A stretch of 64,000 nt of DNA from Nitrospiria bacterium (GCA_919901555.1 CAKKPG010000132.1:13957-77956), one strand, 5' to 3'. Positions 18,428-28,500 are shown, counted from the first letter of the stretch. A program made the numbers and translations. Notes: a model not told the origin generated them from the sequence alone.

Positions 18428-18530
18428 GGCAACACCTCCTGTTGGATTGTGGCGGTTAAGACGTTCAACCGCTCTTTAAAAAGAGAAATGGCCAATGCAA
18501 GTCAGCCATTGTAATGGAAGCGAACCGGTT

Positions 18531-18782
18531 TCATCCGAGCGCCGCATGGCCGCGGGCGAATACATCCTCGGCATCACGCAACTCCACCGACCCCTCATCC
18601 ACCTCGCGACAGCGCTTGCGCACTTCCTCTCGCCAGGCGGAAGACAGAGTAACTTCCGGTTCTGAATCGAGGCTTTCGATGAGTTTTTCCGCCACGAAAG
18701 CACGCGCTTGCGGCGAAAGAGAAAGGACTTCTGCTATGATCGTGTCTATGGTTGTTTTCATGACAATATTATATACCGGCAA
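18531..18782 (-). CDS. Putative addiction-module antitoxin component (TIGR02574-like), apparently orphan
   Basis: 83 aa; TIDTIIAEVLSLSPQARAFVAEKLIESLDSE...LSSAWREEVRKR pattern typical of that antitoxin family; no RelE/ParE-like ORF adjacent. Confidence 0.5.
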   Translation of the reverse strand: MPVYNIVMKTTIDTIIAEVLSLSPQARAFVAEKLIESLDSEPEVTLSSAWREEVRKRCREVDEGSVELRDAEDVFARGHAALG

Positions 18783-18866
18783 TACACAGACGTCAATATG
18801 TTGAATTGAATCGCGGTGCTGAGGCGGGCGTTCTTTGCCCGGCCCTCTCGAACAACTGGCTGCGCA

Positions 18867-19712
18867 TTACTCCATCTTGCCGCCATGAAGAATTGCTCGC
18901 GCGTATTCAATGAAGCTATGTTTTCGACTTCCAACTCTTCCTTTTGTACCGATATGCGGATCGTCATAAAAATAGCCGCTGCCAATTAGCCAAAAGACCT
19001 TGTCTGCGTTGTATGCGCTTTCATTGGCATGACCGGCAAGGCGGATAATAGCTTTAAACAATTGGTAGTCGTCTGCCTTATCTTGACATAGGTTAAGAGA
19101 TAAAAAAATATCACGAAGGTGGACATCTGGTTTTGAAAAGTTGACATAACCCATTTCCTTGAGAAAATCGCATGATAATGCGAAGCCGAATCCTTCAATT
19201 TCTCGACTCAGAAGCATTGGCAGACTCGCGCGCGCTCGATCGTCTCGGTCGAAAAAGTCTACCCAACTAAAAAAATCATTGGCTGATGCAAATTGCTCAA
19301 CAAAATTGGCTGCTGATAATATCGTCTGGCAATAGTGCGGCCAAATGCTCCGTGGAGTTCTGCGAAGTTCGCCTCGTGGATGAAGTTGTTCCACAATATC
19401 GTCAAGAACTACTTCCCAATCATCGCCGTATTTGTTCAAGACACTTTTCGGTGTGAAGTTGTCTAAGACAATGGACAGTTTTCCCACACCACCTATGGCT
19501 TTACCGATAACACCGGCCTTCATGTTTGCATTTTGTGCAGATTCAAGAAACCTTTGATAGATGCCTTGCTTTGTAGTCGGCTTGGGATTAATTGTTAAGG
19601 GGTTCAAATATTTTTCGATGAGATTTGGTGTTACCCCATTTATACCAAGGCTCGGCAAATAGCTTTTTGCCAGTAGATAGGCTTGCTTATCAATTTTTGC
19701 AGTATCAGTCAT
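18867..19712 (-). CDS. Hypothetical protein in R-M islet; possible helix-hairpin-helix (HhH-GPD-like) fold
   Basis: 281 aa, ~45-50% GC; segment EIEGFGFALSCDFLKEMGYVNFSKPDVHLRDIFLSL resembles the HhH-loop plus xDxHVxR element of HhH-GPD glycosylases, but this is a weak, by-eye similarity. Confidence 0.4.
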   Translation of the reverse strand: MTDTAKIDKQAYLLAKSYLPSLGINGVTPNLIEKYLNPLTINPKPTTKQGIYQRFLESAQNANMKAGVIGKAIGGVGKLSIVLDNFTPKSVLNKYGDDWEVVLDDIVEQLHPRGELRRTPRSIWPHYCQTILSAANFVEQFASANDFFSWVDFFDRDDRARASLPMLLSREIEGFGFALSCDFLKEMGYVNFSKPDVHLRDIFLSLNLCQDKADDYQLFKAIIRLAGHANESAYNADKVFWLIGSGYFYDDPHIGTKGRVGSRKHSFIEYARAILHGGKME

Positions 19713-19736
19713 TTTTTATTATGCACCATCGATAAG

Positions 19737-21305
19737 CTAAGGGGCGTGGCGTTTTTGCCGTGCCCCTCTTGGGCGCTTGGTTAAATACTGCGCTTGTTTC
19801 TCAAAGACGAGCAGACCTTGCTGGCTCTCAAACATCGCGGCATCTCTGAAGTATGAACGTGCTTCTCTTTCCAAGCCGAGCCTTTCTGCCACTCGTTTCA
19901 AATCAATACGGTTAAGCACGTCGATGGTAACCGGTCTCTTTGCATCAAAGAACGCGAGAGAATGAAGGAACCGCTGGGAGATGTCGGAATTGAGCAGAAG
20001 GCTCGCGAAATTTGCTTCCTCTTCGGAACCACAAGGAATGGAGTAACAGGTATCGTCTAAAACCACGGGTTTGTTCTTGTACTTTCCGACGACCACGAAC
20101 CGGCAATTTTTGTAGAGGCCGGAGATTGCGACTTTCCACGGAGAAAACGTGTAGTTTCCGACACCGAATACCGAAAATCGTGGTCGCTTCTGATAGATTA
20201 TGCTCTGACGCCGGTCCAGGACATCCGCGTGACGCAGCAGGTAAGCCCACGTCTTTGGAGCAGTTCTCACAATAGACTCCGTATCATCACCGGGCTTGCG
20301 CTGAGTAACAAGAACAAAGCGTTGCGGTATAAGCCTGTCATTGGCGAGATCGGAAGACTTCAATAATGGAAAGAGGTAGGTCGGTTCAACCTTAATGTGT
20401 TCATCGAACCCGTTGACCAGAGTGTCGCCGGACTTACGAAACTCCATGACGGAAGCTGCATCGTGTTTCACGCCTGAGCGCCATGTATAATAGCCGACCC
20501 CGTCGAGATCACGCAACCGGTGATATCCGTCAACGTCCGCAACCAGGTCTCTGCCTACGAGACCGAATGTCGTCAGTTTATGGTCGAAAGAAAGGTCCGC
20601 GTACACCCCTGCCGTGGACAGCAGGTCCGGAACGCCGGTGTGAACAACAAGCAAACAGGCATCAACCGAAACGCCGAAGTGCATCGCAGCGTCTATCAAG
20701 TGAAGGCTTGCCCTGCCGATATTAAACCGATTGAGCCAGCCGTGCCGGAGCACTTTCCGCGCGGTTGATGTCTTACAGAGCATGGCCAGACTACCGCGCC
20801 GGCCATCGAGGGCTTCGAGGAGTTTGATCAACATCCATTCTGAAATATCGAAGTTGGCCTTGCCCGTCTTGGCGGCAAAGCCAACGTGATTTTGGAAGTT
20901 TGTTTTCTTAGGAAGATTGTCGCTTCCCAGGGCCCCAAGTGCGGCGTTGGTAACCCAGGGAGGGTTTCCCAGAACAAGAATTTCATCGCGCAATGATGAG
21001 AAGAACTCTTTCCAATTATAGGTGAAGAAATCCTGTCGGGTCACATGCCAATGAGCGCTGTTTGTATCACGGATTTTTTTACGCAAAGCTGAGATATAGG
21101 CATCATTAATGTCGAAAGCAAATATCTGACGCGTTTTGGGAAAAACATCTTGTGCCGCGAGCGCAAAACTTCCATGGCCGCAGGTTGGTTCTACGATAGC
21201 GGAAGGCAGAATACCCGCGTCGCGGAGGAATGCCGTAACAGCGTCGGCCAAATCGCGGGGAGTCTGAAAATCTCCAAATTCTATTTTAGTCTTTTTGATC
21301 GTCAT
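19737..21305 (-). CDS. Gamma-class N6-adenine DNA methyltransferase (R-M system modification subunit, possible type IIG-like with C-terminal target-recognition domain)
   Basis: 522 aa; FQTPRDLADAV (motif X), EPTCGHGSF (motif I, AdoMet), LVLGNPPW (motif IV NPPW) in X-I-IV order; low GC versus flanks. Confidence 0.8.
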   Translation of the reverse strand: MTIKKTKIEFGDFQTPRDLADAVTAFLRDAGILPSAIVEPTCGHGSFALAAQDVFPKTRQIFAFDINDAYISALRKKIRDTNSAHWHVTRQDFFTYNWKEFFSSLRDEILVLGNPPWVTNAALGALGSDNLPKKTNFQNHVGFAAKTGKANFDISEWMLIKLLEALDGRRGSLAMLCKTSTARKVLRHGWLNRFNIGRASLHLIDAAMHFGVSVDACLLVVHTGVPDLLSTAGVYADLSFDHKLTTFGLVGRDLVADVDGYHRLRDLDGVGYYTWRSGVKHDAASVMEFRKSGDTLVNGFDEHIKVEPTYLFPLLKSSDLANDRLIPQRFVLVTQRKPGDDTESIVRTAPKTWAYLLRHADVLDRRQSIIYQKRPRFSVFGVGNYTFSPWKVAISGLYKNCRFVVVGKYKNKPVVLDDTCYSIPCGSEEEANFASLLLNSDISQRFLHSLAFFDAKRPVTIDVLNRIDLKRVAERLGLEREARSYFRDAAMFESQQGLLVFEKQAQYLTKRPRGARQKRHAP

Positions 21306-21952
21306 GCGATACGCTGTACACCGGTGACCTTGCCGGCCTGCTCAATGACCCGGGCATACTGAAGCCGCCACTGAAGTGCGTTTGAAATGGTCAGATAGCC
21401 CACTTTTGGTCTGGTTTTAAGGATTTCTTTCGCCAATTCCTCAGCCTGAATATCGTCCAATGGTAAAAAGCGCTCCATCATGAAAGCGATAAGATCATCA
21501 TTGTTGCCATTATTGTCCAATATTTTAAGGATTCCTGTCGTAGTCTGAAAGTCCCCGGTCTGACCGCTTTCGATGAAAATTACGTGTTTGATATCCAAGG
21601 TGGCTGTGCGTGTTTTCCGTTCGTCCTTCTTGTCATAAACGAAAACCAAGAGAGAATAACCAAGTCCGTATATTTTCTGCCGGGCGGATTTAAAGGGGCA
21701 GGAGGATTGAGGTTGCCGGATACTGGTCACCTTTATGTCTATATCCAGTTCGGGGAAGTCTATTCCTTTCGCCGAGGAACCTCGCGCGTACTCGTATTTC
21801 TTCTGTAGCGCTGCCTGGAACTTGTGTTCCAGATAAGTCCCGACGGCCTTGCCGTCCGTCACACCGAAAAGTGATTTCTCCTTGTGTCCTGATTCCCGAT
21901 CGGCAAAGACTTTTGCTTCGGTTTTCAGAAGTTGGGTTGTAAGTTTTTGCAT
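21302..21952 (-). CDS. Putative restriction endonuclease or other PD-(D/E)xK-like partner of the methyltransferase (4-nt overlap with the MTase start)
   Basis: 216 aa; GIDFPELDIDIKVTS could be a PD..(D/E)xK core; translational coupling to the MTase. Assignment tentative. Confidence 0.4.
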   Translation of the reverse strand: MQKLTTQLLKTEAKVFADRESGHKEKSLFGVTDGKAVGTYLEHKFQAALQKKYEYARGSSAKGIDFPELDIDIKVTSIRQPQSSCPFKSARQKIYGLGYSLLVFVYDKKDERKTRTATLDIKHVIFIESGQTGDFQTTTGILKILDNNGNNDDLIAFMMERFLPLDDIQAEELAKEILKTRPKVGYLTISNALQWRLQYARVIEQAGKVTGVQRIA

Positions 21953-22218
21953 ATCTTTCTCCCGGTTTTAATGGCTCAATTCGTAGCTCGATCTTGGAGC
22001 CATACGGTTTTATTGAGCCACATATTGAGAAGTTTTCTCGACTTTATCGTAATTTTCATGCGAAGTCAAACAAAGAAAGATATCAAACCAACATAACCAT
22101 CGGATTTCTTTATAAAAAGGCCAATAGGGGGTCAACTCCGGGATATCAACAGACTACCCTCTATCCGAATCACAAGCCCCCGTTGTCCCGCCCTGTAATA
22201 ACCATGGGGTTCGTCGAG

Positions 22219-23235
22219 CTACTCTTTTGCCGCGGCGCGGGCGCGCTTTACGCGCTCTGCTGTGACCGGATGGGACGAGACGTAGGCAAAGGCGCGCTCC
22301 TCTTGCTCGTGTTGTTTTGCGAGCCTTTCCATGAGCGAAGCAAATGCCGCCGGTGAGTGGCCTTTCTGTTTGAGCAGTCTGAAAGCAAAAGCATCGGCCG
22401 CGGCTTCGAACTCACGGGAGTATTTCGTCTGCGCCACCAGGACCGGAAGGCCGGCGACGGCGACGCTGAGCGATGCGGCATCAGCGGTGACGGTGGCGAC
22501 GACGACGGCGGTAACGGAGTTCTGGAGCACGCTCCTCAGGGTATGACGAAGCTCCACATGCCCGATCTCGTGGGCCAGCACTGCCTGCACTTCATCCGGA
22601 GACTCCGCTGCCTTCACCATATCGTCCGTGATGACGATGGTCCCTCCGGGAAGAGCAAAAGCGTTCGCACCGATGGCCCCGGCGGCGCGAAACTCCAGCT
22701 GATAGTGGTTTTTCAGCGGCAGCTCGCTGCGAAGCCTGTCAAAACCGTCCTGGATGCCTTTCTGCGTGTTCTTATCAAGGTTCGTCGGCGTGAACCATCC
22801 TTGCTCATCCAGCCAGGCCAGGGCCTGCTTGCCAAGCGTTTGCTCTGTTTCTATAGGTATACGGGCGGCAATGCGCTCGGCCGCGGCCGGCAGGCCGAAG
22901 AAGTAGCCTGCAAGCAGCATGCATGCGACGATCGCGACACCCGCCAGCGCAACGCCCCACCGCTCCTCCAGCCACGCCACAGGCCCTTCGGACGGGCTTG
23001 CCTGGGGCAGCGACTCCAGAAAAGCATGGTCAGCGCATTGAAATTGTCCGCCGCTAGGAAGGGCGATGAAACGGTCTGTCTTGCCGATACGCGGCGATAC
23101 TTTCAGCGTATCAACGGCATACCGCCCGGAAGTCAGGTTGGCAGTCAGTAACGCATCCTGGCCTGTGAATTCCATGGTGGCCGGCACGGCAATCGGCCAT
23201 CGGCCGTCGTAGTAGTGCCCCTCAATGGTGATCAT
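22219..23235 (-). CDS. M48-family zinc metallopeptidase (HtpX/Ste24-like), membrane-anchored
   Basis: 338 aa; LAHEIGHVELRH HExxH motif, N-terminal TM helix; 4-nt overlap with the upstream DUF898 gene. Confidence 0.8.
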   Translation of the reverse strand: MITIEGHYYDGRWPIAVPATMEFTGQDALLTANLTSGRYAVDTLKVSPRIGKTDRFIALPSGGQFQCADHAFLESLPQASPSEGPVAWLEERWGVALAGVAIVACMLLAGYFFGLPAAAERIAARIPIETEQTLGKQALAWLDEQGWFTPTNLDKNTQKGIQDGFDRLRSELPLKNHYQLEFRAAGAIGANAFALPGGTIVITDDMVKAAESPDEVQAVLAHEIGHVELRHTLRSVLQNSVTAVVVATVTADAASLSVAVAGLPVLVAQTKYSREFEAAADAFAFRLLKQKGHSPAAFASLMERLAKQHEQEERAFAYVSSHPVTAERVKRARAAAKE

Positions 23236-24638
23236 AGTGAAAGGTCCACGTCAAAAAAGTCCACGGTCTCGGCCCCGATCGCCTCCACCGCGAGCAGGTC
23301 GCTTCCCTGGAATTCGGCGAGTTCCCCTTCCTGCAGGACCCGCAGATTGTCGGCCCGGTACTTCAGGGTCCGCATCACCGCCCAGGGGATCAGAAGCCCC
23401 AGTGAGGCGATAATGGAGAGCGCGTTGGTCACGTAGAGTTTTGCCATGCCTCTGCCGAGCAGGGTGGATTGAAAGCGGAGCGGTCCGAGCCGTGTATGGT
23501 TCCAGACAACGTTGCTGCTGTGCGCCTGAACGTATGCGAATGCCAGCACGTATCCGGCGTAAATCGGAACGAGGGCGAGCAAAGCAATAAGCTGTGACTT
23601 CTTTGTGAACGCCAACAGCATGGCCGCGAGCAGGCCGGTGCTGATCAGGAAAGCCGCCATGATCAGGCCTGATATAAAATAGACCTTAAAGAACTGCCCG
23701 CCGGTGGCGGAAAAGGCCCCATTCCTTCCGCCATAGGAGGTATGGCCGATGAGAAAGTTCTTGAGCCGCTTTATCCACCAGGGGAATGCGAAGCTGAAAA
23801 CAATGACCAGAACGGCCGCGACAGCGTATTTCCCCCACCAATTGAACATCGTTCCGAGGACGAAGAAGGGAATGAGCCCCCACACGTAAATCTCTTTCAG
23901 GGCATCGGCATATCCCCCGTCGAAATGAAAGGTCATGTTGCGGAAGGCGGAGTAGCGGGCGTTGAATGCTGCCGAGCGGACGATCACCCATGGCGCGAGT
24001 ACCGCTCCGGCCCCAAATACATAGGGCAGCAGGGAGGTAAAAAAGTGATTCGATGCGTAATAAACCAGGAACGCCGCCGCCGCGATCACGCGGCCTTTGA
24101 GGATCGGGACCGGCTGGCCCAGATACTGGAACGGCGTGCCGTCCAGCGTGGTGTGGGAGTAGAAATAGCGTTTCTTGCGCACCTTCGCCCATGCGGAAAA
24201 GATGCCCAGGGTAAGGAGCGTCAGGCAGAGATTCACGATCCAGATCCGGAAATATTCGCTCGCTGAACCCCGGAACTTGAGCGCCAACTCGCGCTGTTGC
24301 CCCGGCATTTCTTTGTTTCGCAATAAAAATGTTTCGATAGGTCCGGGCGATTCCTTCGCCTCCTGCGGATCGACCTTGAACGGCCTGCTTGCGTCGTAGC
24401 CGCATGAGCATACGGCCATGTCCTCATGATTACTTGAACCACATTGTGGACATTCCCAGCCCATAACCTTATCCGGCTTTCGTAAAGGTTCAAAAAGAGG
24501 CGCTGTGTCGGACAAAGGGCTGCCGCAGTCGGAGCAGAAGGCTGCTCCTTTCAAGAACTCCGCTGGTTCCCCCAAACGTTTTCTATGGTCGCAATCGGGA
24601 TTTGGGCAGAAAGGCATGAGTTCCTCTGTCAATAACAA
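23232..24638 (-). CDS. DUF898 (YjgN-like) multi-pass membrane protein with two N-terminal zinc-ribbon modules
   Basis: 468 aa; CPNPDCDH...CSDCG and CPQCGSS...CSCG ribbons, then two copies of the DUF898 unit (F.GSASEYFRIWIVNLCLTLLTLGIFSAWAKVRKKRYF...). Confidence 0.7.
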   Translation of the reverse strand: MLLTEELMPFCPNPDCDHRKRLGEPAEFLKGAAFCSDCGSPLSDTAPLFEPLRKPDKVMGWECPQCGSSNHEDMAVCSCGYDASRPFKVDPQEAKESPGPIETFLLRNKEMPGQQRELALKFRGSASEYFRIWIVNLCLTLLTLGIFSAWAKVRKKRYFYSHTTLDGTPFQYLGQPVPILKGRVIAAAAFLVYYASNHFFTSLLPYVFGAGAVLAPWVIVRSAAFNARYSAFRNMTFHFDGGYADALKEIYVWGLIPFFVLGTMFNWWGKYAVAAVLVIVFSFAFPWWIKRLKNFLIGHTSYGGRNGAFSATGGQFFKVYFISGLIMAAFLISTGLLAAMLLAFTKKSQLIALLALVPIYAGYVLAFAYVQAHSSNVVWNHTRLGPLRFQSTLLGRGMAKLYVTNALSIIASLGLLIPWAVMRTLKYRADNLRVLQEGELAEFQGSDLLAVEAIGAETVDFFDVDLSL

Positions 24639-24861
24639 AGATTATGCGAAAAACTATTTATCCACTCTCTTGTGGTGATAATAAATCAGCAAATACTGTT
24701 CCTCAATAGCTAATTCGGGCTGAAGCATGCACGTTGCAATAAAAATGCAACTGCCGAAAAGTACAGGAAGAAGTCTATTTTTTTCTAAATTCGTTGTCAA
24801 TGGAAAGAAACGGCGCGAGAAGGAAAGGACGAAAAATAAGAAGTGATAAAGATGACGGTGC

Positions 24862-25155
24862 TTACACGGCCATTTTTGCGCTTGACGATCTCGGTTGATG
24901 ATTAATGCCGAGCAGGCCGTCAATTGACAAATCCTCATCTATGAGCGGCCAATGGATGCCATAACCTGATGGCGATATTTCGTAGGCTGCTCTCTCGGCT
25001 GGCGAAGCTTTGGCAAGTCTTTGCGAAATGTCCGTGAGGGCAAAAGAATATTCCTTACCGTCCACCATTATAATTACGGTGTCATCTTTGAAGAGAACCT
25101 TTTCGATTTCATGGTATCTGGTCAATTTTGCCTCTCCCGTTGGAACTTGTTCCAT
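24862..25155 (-). CDS. DUF2442-family small protein
   Basis: 97 aa; LFKDDTVIIMVDGKEYSFALTDI..L..ASPAERAAYEISPSGYGIHWPLIDEDLSIDGLL resembles DUF2442; sits in an AT-rich islet. Confidence 0.55.
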   Translation of the reverse strand: MEQVPTGEAKLTRYHEIEKVLFKDDTVIIMVDGKEYSFALTDISQRLAKASPAERAAYEISPSGYGIHWPLIDEDLSIDGLLGINHQPRSSSAKMAV

Positions 25156-25379
25156 TCGGTCTCAATAAAGTCAAAATACTCGAAAATGATCTTTTTGACC
25201 TCTCGCTTATTGCTGCTATTCATATTATAGCTATGTGCCTCTTCAACGTCAAAGTTCAGACTGTCGAGCCAGAACTTGCACTCCATCTCGCCTTTTTTAC
25301 AATGAACATGTATTGGCTCATTACCTTCGTTAGAATAAAAGAAAAATCTCCACCCCATAACGAATAGTATCGTTGGCAT
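25122..25379 (-). CDS. DUF4160-family small protein (usual partner of DUF2442)
   Basis: 85 aa; MPTI..GWRFFFYSNEGNEPIHVHC.KGE.E.KFWL matches the DUF4160 N-terminal signature; overlaps the DUF2442 gene start. Confidence 0.55.
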   Translation of the reverse strand: MPTILFVMGWRFFFYSNEGNEPIHVHCKKGEMECKFWLDSLNFDVEEAHSYNMNSSNKREVKKIIFEYFDFIETEWNKFQRERQN

Positions 25380-25542
25380 GATGAATAATATTATACACCT
25401 ATAGACAGAAAAATAAAGTCCTAAAGCTTTCTAGATGTAATCTTCATATTTCCAAAATATGCAACTGTCGCGTAGGAGGAAGTATGAAGCACTCTGATGG
25501 CTGAGTCGAATCCTGCTTGAGAGCGCGCCGGAGCATCCAGCC

Positions 25543-28500
25543 TCATGATTTTATCTCCTGCTTCGCCTCCCGGTACCCCTTCGCCTGGTGCATGAAGGCT
25601 TCGAGGCGGGTGAGGGTCTGGGAGTCCTTCTGGCCTTCGTAGGCGATCGAGAGCAGCGGGATATTATCGAAGTCCTCTCTCACGCGCTTCAGCAGCGCGC
25701 CGGCAATGGTGCCGGGCATGCAGGTAAAGGGCATCACGTTCACAATGCCTGATACGCCCCGCTTGATGTAGTCGATGGCCTTGCCCACGGACAGCACGGT
25801 CTCGCCCTCGAAGGAATGATGGACATAGGGCGCCGCGGCGCGGAGGGTCTCGCTGATCCTCGGCTCGTGAAGGCTCCGGAGGCTTCCATTGAAGCTGCTG
25901 ACCATTTTATGCTCTTCCCGCTCCTGCACCCAGCCGGCAACGTGCGATTTGAACAGGTCGCCCCATGCGCGGTTCATGCGGGCGGCGCCCTTTGCCGTCA
26001 CGTTCAGGTAGGCCAACCATTCGGAGATGGGCGCCACCCAGGCCTCGCCGCCGAGCTTCTCGATCTGGCGCACGATGTTCTCGTTCCCATAGCGGTTGGC
26101 GCGGATGTAGATTTCGCCGACAACGCCGATCACGGGCCGGTCGCGTTCGTTGCACTCGATGGCGTTGAATTCCCGGTAGGCCTCCTGCAGAACGGGCAGC
26201 GGTTCCTGCCGTTGCTCAATGGCGTCCGTGAGCTTGCGCAGGGCCTCGCCGTACACGCGGTCCGCTTCTCCTGTTCTCTTTTCATGGGGCCGGTGCTCCC
26301 AGAGCGCCTTCTGGAGCATGTCCACGCCGAGCGTTCCCTTCCAGCAGAGAAGGGAAAAGTCCTTTCCCAGCACGCCCACGTCGCGGTACAGGGTCTCGTC
26401 CTGCGAGGGCGAGAGGATGGGCACCTGTTCCAGGCCGAGCTGGTCCAGCACGAGCCGGTGGTAGCGGTTGTACTGGCCGAACCGGCAGGGCCCTTTGCCC
26501 GAGGGCATGAAGAAGGCGCTCCGTTCGGGGTCGAAGCCGGGCCTGCGCGTTGCCTTGATCATGTCGCCCGTGGTCAGCGCCAGGGGATAGCACTCCCTGC
26601 CGGAACTGTGCTCCTTGCCGATGCGCAGCGTCTCGTCGTCCGACTCGGGCAGCACTTCCGCCTCGACCCCGCAGGCCTTGAAGGCGGCGCTGATCGCGTA
26701 GGCATGATCGGTCATGGGCGGAAGATGGACCTTCTTCCGGTACGGCGACCCGTTCGTCCGGACCTCGAAGGTGCGCACCAGCGAGACGGCAGGAGCATGC
26801 TTCAGGCTGTCGAGGAAGGCCTCGATGCGGGTGACGGCGCCCGCGTCGGCGCTGTGCTCATCGATCTCGAGCTGCAGGAACGGTTTGTCGCCTGCTTCAT
26901 CCTTGAAAAAATGGGTGATGAAAGAATCGGGCCCGCACCCGAAGTTGGTGATATACACGGGATAGAGGTTCGGGTGCTCGCGCATGAACCGGCCGGCCGC
27001 AAGGATGCGCTGGCCCGACCGCCAGTACATGTCCTCCAGGCCGTCCATCGCCACGTCGTGCAGCGGCAGGAAGTCCATGGGGATGGCCTGGATGCCGAGG
27101 TCCCGGATCTTGGCCGGGAGGTTCATGTTCAGGCCCGTGTCGCTGGTGTTGTAGTTCCTGCCGATCAGCACCAGCGCCTTCTCGTCTTCCCGGAGCGAAC
27201 CGAGCACCTCGTTGCCCCGCGCCTCGGCGGATCGGGCGAACTCTTTCTGGGCCCGCTCCGCGCGGTGCATCGCCCGCAGCACAATCCTGCCGCGCTTCCC
27301 GAGGGCCTTGCCGAGGTCCCGCATGCTCTTGATGAAATGCCGGCGGTCCTGGAGCTGGAGCACGGGCTCGAGGGTCCTGGTATTCCCGAAACTGAGGGAC
27401 GCCCGGGCAAGGTAGGGAAAGGCCTGGACATAGGGGCAGGCCTGGGTGCCGGTCAGCTTTTGGTAGGCCACGGGAAAGCGGATGTAGCTCGGCAGGAACA
27501 GGAGGTCAACGCCCTTGTCCAGGAGGTCCTGCAGATGGCCGAGGGCGACCTTGGCCGGAAAACAGGTCTCGGCAGACGTGGCCTCGAGCCCCTTGTTGAC
27601 CAGCGTCCGGTTCGTACGGTCCGACAGCACCACCCGGTATCCCAGCTCGGCAAAGAAGGTCTTCCAGAAGGGCAGATAGTCGCTCACATAGAGCATGCGC
27701 GGAATGCCGATGGTCTTTCCGCCCTTTTCGGGGACCGGAGTATCGAGCAGCATCCGCTCCCGTTCGGCAAAGAGGTCGGGCAGGACCTGGCGGTCTGATG
27801 CTTTTTTCCTGACATCATACTTCTCGCACCTGCTGCCGTAGAAGAGCGGCTCTTCGCCTTCGAAGCTCACCTTGCGCACCGTGCACCGGTTGGCGCACTC
27901 GGCGCACTCGAAGGCCTTGACGGTATAGGCCCGTTTGCTCAGGTCGAAGCCCTTGAACGTGCTCGGCCGACCGTTCTGCTCGCGCATGGCGATGATGGCC
28001 GCGCCGATGGCGCCCGTCACTTCATGGTGCGGCGGCACGGTGATCGCCTTGCCCGTGACCTGTTCAAAGGCCGATACCACGGCCTTGTTCGCCGCCACGC
28101 CTCCCTGGAAGAAGATCCGGCTGCCCACGCGCTTGCCGGCGACGACCTTCTGAAGATAATTATGCACGATGGAATAGGCGAGTCCGGCGGTCAGTTCCTC
28201 CACGCCGGCGCCCTTGTTCATGAAGTGCACAAGGTCCGACTCCATGAACACCGTGCACCGCTCGCCGAGCCTGCAGGGCGATGCGGCCTTGAGCGCCTTT
28301 TCCTCGAACTCCTGCTTGATCCGGATGCCGAGCCGCTCGGCCTGTTCCTCGAGAAAAGACCCGGTGCCCGCGGCGCAGGCCTTGTTCATCTCGAAGTCCA
28401 CCACCGCTCCATTATCGAGGCTGATGAACTTTGAGTCCTGGCCGCCGATCTCGAAGATGGTGTCCACCGCCGGGTCGATCTCCGCGGCCGCCGTTGCTTG

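Follow-up and report, generated by a model that had tools for sequence, protein, structure and literature searches.

Here we describe a variable low-GC islet between the genes for a DoxX protein and an M48 peptidase in a Nitrospiria bacterium (GCA_919901555.1, CAKKPG010000132.1:13957-77956; the whole of this 64,000-nucleotide stretch is referred to as the window, and positions are counted from its first letter). The islet is, very probably, a foreign mosaic of three unrelated mobile modules, namely a restriction-modification (R-M) pair, a gene for a DNA glycosylase-like protein of 281 amino acids (aa) and the remnant of a toxin-antitoxin (TA) system, with the glycosylase gene independent of the R-M pair. 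By analogy, the 281-aa protein appears to be a stand-alone mobile glycosylase that is probably defence-associated, like the Dag proteins of Vibrio integrons; this overall picture, of a mosaic islet carrying a stand-alone mobile and likely Dag-like defence glycosylase, is one that we favour with moderate confidence. Neither the R-M pair nor the TA remnant is unusual. The point of interest is the 281-aa gene, which represents a large family without Pfam, NCBIfam or PADLOC annotation, with a confident helix-hairpin-helix (HhH)-GPD fold and with mobile behaviour.

The 281-aa protein almost certainly adopts the HhH-GPD fold. No match was found in direct searches of Pfam, NCBIfam, PADLOC and the sequences of the Protein Data Bank (PDB). 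A profile of 60 diverse family members, compared with the PDB, retrieved the archaeal Ogg2 N-glycosylase/DNA lyases 3knt and 3fhf (MjOgg; E 0.0015-0.002) in an alignment covering the hairpin and the catalytic-position Asp, and 33 of the 60 members individually gave weak matches to Pfam Ogg-HhH, the best at 1e-5. The curated Pfam models PF00730 (HhH-GPD) and PF22175 (Ogg-HhH) were not reached above the gathering score by the 281-aa protein itself, and its membership of HhH-GPD is at the level of superfamily and fold only. The AlphaFold2 (AF2) model is all-helical, with a predicted local distance difference test (pLDDT) score of 84.7, and its top PDB matches in Foldseek are all HhH-GPD glycosylases (MjOgg, SsOgg, AGOG, EndoIII, AlkA and OGG1). 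Against MjOgg 3knt the Foldseek probability is 1.0 and the target-normalised template-modelling (TM) score 0.60-0.65. Together, the profile alignment and the structural match bear out the first-pass annotation, which had seen in one segment of this protein, confirmed in the translation, a resemblance to the hairpin plus Asp element of HhH-GPD glycosylases.

Across the 60 members, residues of the hairpin and several positions beyond it are conserved. In the hairpin E-I-E-G174-F-G176, which aligns with that of MjOgg, G174 is present in 59 and G176 in 55 members; D196, located 22 residues past G174 and aligned with the Asp of 'IIDRHI' in 3knt, is found in 58. Further along, D237 is invariant (60/60), and K194 (59/60), K238 (55/60) and W241 (54/60) are nearly so. 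The Schiff-base lysine site of the canonical G-x-G-x-K hairpin corresponds to position 178, which is Ala in 48, Pro in seven, Thr in five and Lys in none of the 60 members; K185, K194 and K238 are conserved lysines away from that position. Because the hairpin lysine is lacking in every member of the set, the protein is predicted to be probably monofunctional, unless K194 or another conserved lysine substitutes for it.

The family is large and widely scattered. One database yielded 1,397 matches and another 852 clusters at 50% identity; most are of 270-290 aa, all are annotated as 'hypothetical', and the bacterial hosts span more than ten phyla (e.g., Desulfobacterota, Verrucomicrobiota, Planctomycetota, Acidobacteriota, Chloroflexota, Actinobacteriota, Bacteroidota and Burkholderiales). 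The family is also rare, being present in at least 213 of 185,579 species genomes (about 0.1%), a lower bound limited by the pattern used. Archaeal copies are 62-70% identical to the Nitrospirota protein in Methanothrix/Methanotrichaceae (loci L020, L022, L023, L033 and L036) and 42% identical in Methanobacterium (L088), and at the sequence level they imply recent transfer between the domains.

Several features suggest that members move as single genes. At 57 of 66 loci the glycosylase gene has a lower GC than the distal flanks (mean difference -6.1 points, p = 3e-9), and nucleotide homology of the window gene to its nearest relatives is confined to 19713-18840, that is, to the open reading frame (ORF) itself. 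Members were found in islands with integrase and TA genes, in a conjugative element and overlapping an Mrr-type nuclease gene; at 11 of 80 family loci a tyrosine recombinase is encoded no more than 10 kb away, a count that stands without a matched control. There is no constant partner: the largest non-self neighbour cluster within 5 kb is shared by 5 of 80 loci, and no Pfam or PADLOC family recurs beyond two cases among the 139 nearest neighbours, where methyltransferases (MTases) are rare. No member was found in the phage collection, and plasmids yielded a single match, at 34% identity, on a Pseudomonas megaplasmid. Judged from these comparisons, the family behaves as a horizontally mobile accessory gene, a single-gene module.

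Local arrangements were seen in some lineages. In a Desulfobacterales locus (L004:6989-8017, the same locus as L016), the gene for a 342-aa restriction-type nuclease (Mrr_cat/DUF8426) has 17 bp in common with the start of the glycosylase homologue, and an operon combining a modification-dependent nuclease with a glycosylase is conceivable there. A 208-aa protein with a weak GIY-YIG nuclease match (E 0.004) follows the homologue at L005:8968-9594, and likewise in L006 and L007; the L005 contig resembles a conjugative element, with TraG, SLT and AbiE. Three Bacteroidota-type loci, L066 among them, share a conserved gene (about 204 aa) whose end lies 24 bp before the homologue in the same orientation, which may represent a lineage-specific two-gene arrangement. 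Across loci L009-L088, seven extra glycosylase paralogues were observed in tandem or close by, five of them upstream on the same strand.

The relationship of the 281-aa gene to the adjacent R-M pair was examined from both sides. The pair, in the order restriction endonuclease (REase) then MTase, occurs on unrelated plasmids of Aeromonas (a 6.8-kb qnrS2 plasmid), Nostoc and Lactococcus, and no gene resembling the 281-aa gene lies near it on any of these three. In blastn, the copies at L097, L100 and L102 match the window at 77-90% identity over exactly 21971-19728 and no further, so that homology stops 9 bp past the MTase stop codon and 16 bp ahead of the start codon of the 281-aa gene; REases of cassette copies in other genomes are 89-97% identical to that of the window. 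Conversely, none of 87 loci carrying glycosylase-family members (80 from genomes and seven from metagenomes) has a homologue of the window REase, MTase or antitoxin nearby. GC content at third codon positions (GC3) differs as well, being 0.39 in the glycosylase gene, 0.54-0.56 in the R-M genes, 0.57 in the antitoxin gene and 0.70-0.83 in host genes. Because of the missing linkage across 87 loci, the end of R-M homology ahead of the 281-aa gene and the differing GC3, the glycosylase gene is not considered part of the R-M system. The first-pass annotation had suggested that a glycosylase of this kind could act as the restriction or anti-modification component of the R-M system in place of a canonical nuclease; this idea is not supported, as the R-M pair is self-contained, has an NspV-family nuclease of its own and is absent from the 87 family loci. 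Sitting beside an R-M pair inside a low-GC islet is no evidence for a three-gene system.

Recurrence of a glycosylase-type gene beside this kind of R-M pair was assessed in 90 R-M loci (80 further loci plus the earlier ones), of which 69 have a complete pair and 38-39 are flanked by 2 kb or more. The closest other cassette lineage, L097, has an REase 97% identical to that of the window (97%/87% for the cassette copy) and encodes a 268-aa distant relative of the 281-aa family. In hhalign this protein matches the family with a probability of 96% (E 3e-9); AKPDRHI and LDNAIW are its motifs, and it gives a weak match to Pfam Tag (Adenine_glyco). Its gene lies two positions downstream of the MTase, with a 215-aa gene of unassigned function in between. 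Beyond L097, no further case was found in these loci with the family hidden Markov model (HMM), which detects the L097 protein at E 3.5e-8. A glycosylase-type gene thus stands beside R-M in about 2 of 38 lineages, and the copies are non-orthologous. This is far above random placement, yet it is the exception, and as sequence evidence the recurrent co-location is better explained by defence-island clustering or by functional complementarity than by an obligate system. Two further candidates were rejected: an HhH-GPD gene 2 kb from the R-M copy in L102, considered as a third co-occurrence, is a canonical Nth beside secG and unrelated to the family, and L092, considered as an independent MTase-glycosylase junction, represents this very locus in a sister population (97.9% nucleotide identity).

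The closest functional parallel is provided by the Dag proteins, solo HhH-superfamily glycosylases of Vibrio integrons that defend against phages with 7-deazaguanine-type bases, are encoded in AT-rich mobile contexts and have been compared structurally with 3KNT, 3FHG and 7OLB; the bifunctional Dag1 requires K118 and D184, a catalytic Lys-Asp pair, and W188, a stacking Trp (Getz et al., bioRxiv 10.1101/2025.10.29.685425). The 281-aa family shares with them a single-gene HhH glycosylase missed by sequence annotation and scattered widely over phyla, the same Ogg2/AGOG structures (3KNT, 3FHG, 7OLB) as closest solved relatives, AT-rich, mobile or defence-associated contexts (for the 281-aa family without a matched control) and the Asp-x3-Trp spacing of D184/W188 in Dag1, which recurs as D237/W241. 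Unlike the Dag proteins, the family reaches into archaea and is not known from integron cassettes.

The archaeal 8-oxoguanine glycosylases of the Ogg2/AGOG type (MjOgg 3knt, SsOgg 3fhg, Pab-AGOG) are the best profile and fold matches, and the alignment takes in the HhH hairpin, the Asp beyond it and the D-x3-W helix at the C-terminal end. They differ in that identity is 13-15% and the 281-aa protein is about 75 residues longer, with another N-terminal region; in that the catalytic Lys two residues past the Ogg2 hairpin (G-I-G-Y-K in MjOgg) is replaced by Ala, Pro or Thr; and in that the family has its own K-P-D-x-H motif and a mobile, patchy distribution unlike that of a core repair gene. The restriction glycosylase R.PabI, offered earlier as a precedent, adopts a half-pipe fold and invariably sits beside its MTase (PMC10273834). 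It shares with the 281-aa protein the concept of base excision against foreign DNA and a position beside an N6-methyladenine (m6A) MTase, but the analogy breaks down on the HhH-GPD fold and on MTase linkage, which is unconserved in the family (0/87 loci).

A number of points weigh against the overall picture of a mosaic islet with a Dag-like defence glycosylase. The defence role is argued from context and analogy, the likeness to Dag1-Dag19 is drawn from published descriptions as opposed to sequences, and the figures for mobility and defence enrichment stand without a matched control. Many family members sit among housekeeping genes. Dag1 is bifunctional and needs its hairpin K118, whereas the 281-aa family has no lysine at the canonical position and is predicted to be monofunctional. 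As regards independence from R-M, the glycosylase ORF follows the MTase after 24 bp in the same orientation, and the lack of a convincing terminator there allows co-transcription with R-M; the L097 lineage, with its distant homologue two genes downstream, hints at more than random co-location. Lastly, depletion of TTCGAA in the window is modest and non-unique, so that the specificity of the R-M pair is a predicted one.

A defence role in preference to a repair role is, by analogy, an evenly balanced call. The main rival explanation, which we consider rather unlikely, is that the 281-aa protein is a horizontally spread accessory base-excision repair enzyme, acting for instance on oxidised or alkylated purines, with no part in defence. 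Its nearest relatives in sequence and structure are indeed repair enzymes (Ogg2, AGOG, EndoIII and AlkA), many of the nearest neighbours of the family are housekeeping genes, and matches in phage genomes (none) and on plasmids (one) are scarce. Set against this are a very patchy distribution over at least 213 of the 185,579 species genomes, an identity of 64-70% between bacterial and archaeal copies, the strong AT bias relative to flanks, the lack of conserved synteny, the presence of members in integrase/TA islands and conjugative elements, the location of the window copy in a strain-variable hotspot beside R-M and the absence of the Ogg2 catalytic Lys.

It is improbable that the 281-aa glycosylase is instead a facultative partner of the NspV-type R-M pair, for example by processing uncut sites or repairing methylation-related damage. 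The 24-bp spacing on a common strand with no clear terminator would suit such a partnership, as would the distant homologue in L097, whose REase is 97% identical, and a precedent exists in Mig.MthI and Vsr, which accompany R-M systems of the 5-methylcytosine (m5C) type. Enzymes of the Mig.MthI/Vsr type are, however, tied to an m5C methyltransferase whose product deaminates to T:G, whereas the window MTase has the NPPW amino-MTase motif with N6_Mtase and MTase_II matches; it is of the N6-adenine type, so the logic of m5C deamination repair is inapplicable. Further evidence against a partnership is that, of 38 independent R-M loci flanked by 2 kb or more, about two have such a gene and that none of the three plasmid copies does, that the window R-M is found at 0 of 87 glycosylase-family loci, that homology breakpoints and GC3 point to separate origins, and that the R-M pair already has its own nuclease. 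Least of all do we expect a catalytically inactive HhH DNA-binding protein, serving as a reader of lesions or modifications or as a regulator: the canonical Schiff-base lysine is missing from all 60 diverse members and Pfam HhH-GPD fails to recognise the protein, but monofunctional HhH-GPD glycosylases such as MutY and AlkA likewise lack that lysine, 58 of 60 members retain the Asp that aligns with the catalytic one of MjOgg, and the invariant D237 together with W241, four positions later, corresponds to the D184/W188 pair that Dag1 requires.

Comparison with sister genomes defines the islet and its site of insertion (Table 1). A sister genome with about 92% nucleotide identity (L008) is collinear with the window through 18477 and again from 22158, and holds 1,290 bp with two unrelated small ORFs where the window holds 3,680 bp; the islet had earlier been placed at 18531-21952, a location that stands with slightly wider borders. 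The drop to roughly 45-50% GC between DoxX and the M48 peptidase reported in the first-pass annotation was measured as 0.42-0.51 over 18750-22250, against about 0.58-0.62 in the flanks, and the islet as a whole has a GC of 0.480 versus 0.569 for the window. Four ORFs, of 216, 522, 281 and 83/76 aa, lie on its minus strand. As had been stated before, neither an integrase nor a transposase is present among the window ORFs in or beside the islet; searches in and beside it for tRNA and Rfam families, and at its borders for terminal direct or inverted repeats, were likewise negative.

Table 1. Features of the islet and of one related locus; positions are those of the window unless a locus is named.
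Feature	Position	Strand	Basis or remark
Variable low-GC insert (islet)	18478..22157		between DoxX and M48 peptidase; synteny with L008 breaks at borders
Terminator-like hairpin + T-run	18487..18510	-	ends at islet border; consensus match only
parE stump (MKPVRFHYNG*)	18502..18534	-	ATG overlaps antitoxin stop
Orphan PF09720/TIGR02574-type antitoxin, 76 aa	18531..18761	-	Pfam Unstab_antitox 2.9e-13; annotated ORF 83 aa, 18531-18782
Sigma-70-like promoter for antitoxin	18768..18796	-	TTGACG-17-TATAAT, 11/12 matches; consensus match only
HhH-GPD-fold DNA glycosylase-like gene, 281 aa	18867..19712	-	hairpin G174-G176, D196, D237-K-x-x-W241
R-M cassette as mobile unit	19728..21971	-	extent of nucleotide homology to copies elsewhere
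Gamma-class N6-adenine-type DNA methyltransferase, 522 aa	19737..21305	-	MTase_II, N6_Mtase, motif order
NspV-family Type IIP restriction endonuclease, 216 aa	21302..21952	-	NF052465, REase_II, PF27258
Distant glycosylase homologue, 268 aa	L097:8997-9803	+	hhalign; also L098 and L099

The site between DoxX and the M48 peptidase has three different contents in three sister genomes and is a hypervariable hotspot. In the sister genome L184 (94.5% nucleotide identity), the match to the window runs unbroken up to 18823, antitoxin and promoter included, and gives way beyond that point to a different low-GC segment of at least 7.6 kb, in which neither R-M nor a glycosylase was found at the DoxX-proximal site. 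Because L184 shares the antitoxin run and then diverges, the antitoxin module is, on sequence comparison, the older one and the segment with glycosylase and R-M (about 18824-22157) is lineage-specific. The L184 insert (L184:11871-19475) is AT-rich (GC 0.35-0.45), with few recognisable genes, one of them Adhesin_E-like; its gene calls appear fragmented, with assembly errors a possible cause. A second strain-variable low-GC patch of the window (24295-25563, GC 0.39-0.49), absent from L008, contains the gene for a DUF2442 protein (24862-25155, minus strand, 3e-17) with small ORFs next to it, possibly another small TA-like module.

The 216- and 522-aa genes form, as far as homology allows it to be read, a canonical Type II R-M cassette of the NspV family, which consists of two genes and includes a nuclease. 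The REase matches the NCBIfam equivalog NF052465 (type II R-M restriction endonuclease) over its full length at 344 bits (cutoff 290) and PADLOC REase_II at 8e-98, and PF27258, 'NspV', is its precomputed Pfam assignment. In a published sequence analysis, NspV-family enzymes were assigned to the PD-(D/E)XK superfamily at reliability 2 (PMC2441816). The earlier suggestion of a PD-(D/E)xK core in the 216-aa protein is in keeping with this assignment and with a candidate core of E42, D65 and D72-I-K74 that is invariant across 25 homologues; its structural side is left unconfirmed by an AF2 model that is poor (pLDDT 55.7) and with which a Foldseek search was uninformative on fold. For the MTase, the match to PADLOC MTase_II PDLC03310 is strong (3e-155) and that to Pfam N6_Mtase just above cutoff (20.7 versus 20.4 bits), and the translation runs in gamma-class order through FQTP (motif X), EPTCGHGSF (motif I) and NPPW (motif IV), in agreement with the first-pass description of a gamma-class N6-adenine enzyme, whose GNPPW string is indeed there. 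The ATGA overlap of the two genes, also described there, amounts to 4 bp from the coordinates, and both the order and the overlap recur in homologous plasmid and chromosomal loci; the window copy is 62% identical to the Nostoc plasmid copies. In its full-length REase match above cutoff, its gene order, its 4-bp overlap and its gamma-class MTase, the pair agrees with NspV-family Type IIP systems, from which nothing notable sets it apart. The recognition site of NspV is TTCGAA (PMC2779907). In the window this palindrome occurs 6 times against 14.4 expected (z = -2.2) and is the third most depleted of 64 palindromes, not uniquely so; with a depletion this little distinctive, palindrome avoidance was dropped as a read-out of R-M specificity.

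The third module is what is left of a PF09720 (TIGR02574)/ParE type II TA system. Intact pairs (L095 and L096) have the antitoxin followed, with the same ATGA overlap, by a 98-aa PF05016 ParE starting MKPVRFHPEADAEM, and their antitoxins are 89-97% identical to that of the window. The window DNA matches intact parE through codon 7 (MKPVRFH), homology being over at about 18513, so the difference from the intact systems is a toxin cut to seven homologous codons, with antitoxin and promoter retained. The antitoxin noted earlier as an orphan is indeed one, both by its PF09720 match and by the seven parE codons that remain, and it is an orphan because the toxin gene was, as the alignment indicates, deleted after codon 7. 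Antitoxin homologues are 76 aa long, which makes the ATG at 18761 the probable real start. Terminator-like sites in the region are no more numerous than expected from shuffled sequence. The parE partner has been lost as well at L093:3231-3540, and at L094:3228-3494 it is apparently frameshifted, with an 88-aa product without Pfam match; toxin decay that leaves the antitoxin behind appears to be recurrent.

Taken together, these data suggest a course of events and a division of labour. The three modules would have accumulated at the hypervariable DoxX-M48 peptidase site in the Nitrospirota lineage, the TA module having lost parE after codon 7 and kept its antitoxin and promoter. The PD-(D/E)XK-type nuclease would cut unmethylated sites, probably TTCGAA or a related palindrome, and the translationally coupled gamma-class MTase would shield host DNA by adenine methylation. 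The glycosylase would attack phage DNA whose modified bases let it evade restriction, and so would complement the neighbouring R-M pair without belonging to it. It would flip a non-canonical base into a pocket built around W241 and cut the N-glycosidic bond with the help of two conserved aspartates, D196 and D237, so that an abasic site remains; as the enzyme is probably monofunctional, strand breakage would rely on host AP endonucleases.

More speculatively, and with doubt outweighing confidence, the 281-aa family may constitute a pan-prokaryotic, lysine-less clade of stand-alone antiviral base-excision enzymes, marked by K-P-D-x-H and D-K-x-x-W, distinct from the published Dag proteins, perhaps directed at another class of phage bases, and lodging by R-M systems on account of complementary prey. 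If so, unmodified DNA would fall to the R-M pair and hypermodified DNA to the glycosylase. The family is a candidate to extend defence by solo HhH glycosylases well beyond Vibrio integrons, maybe with a different chemistry, given that the hairpin lysine is absent, or with a different substrate. Should its members protect against phages, they would add a compact single-gene system to the defence catalogues and possibly provide a new modified-base-specific glycosylase for biotechnology.

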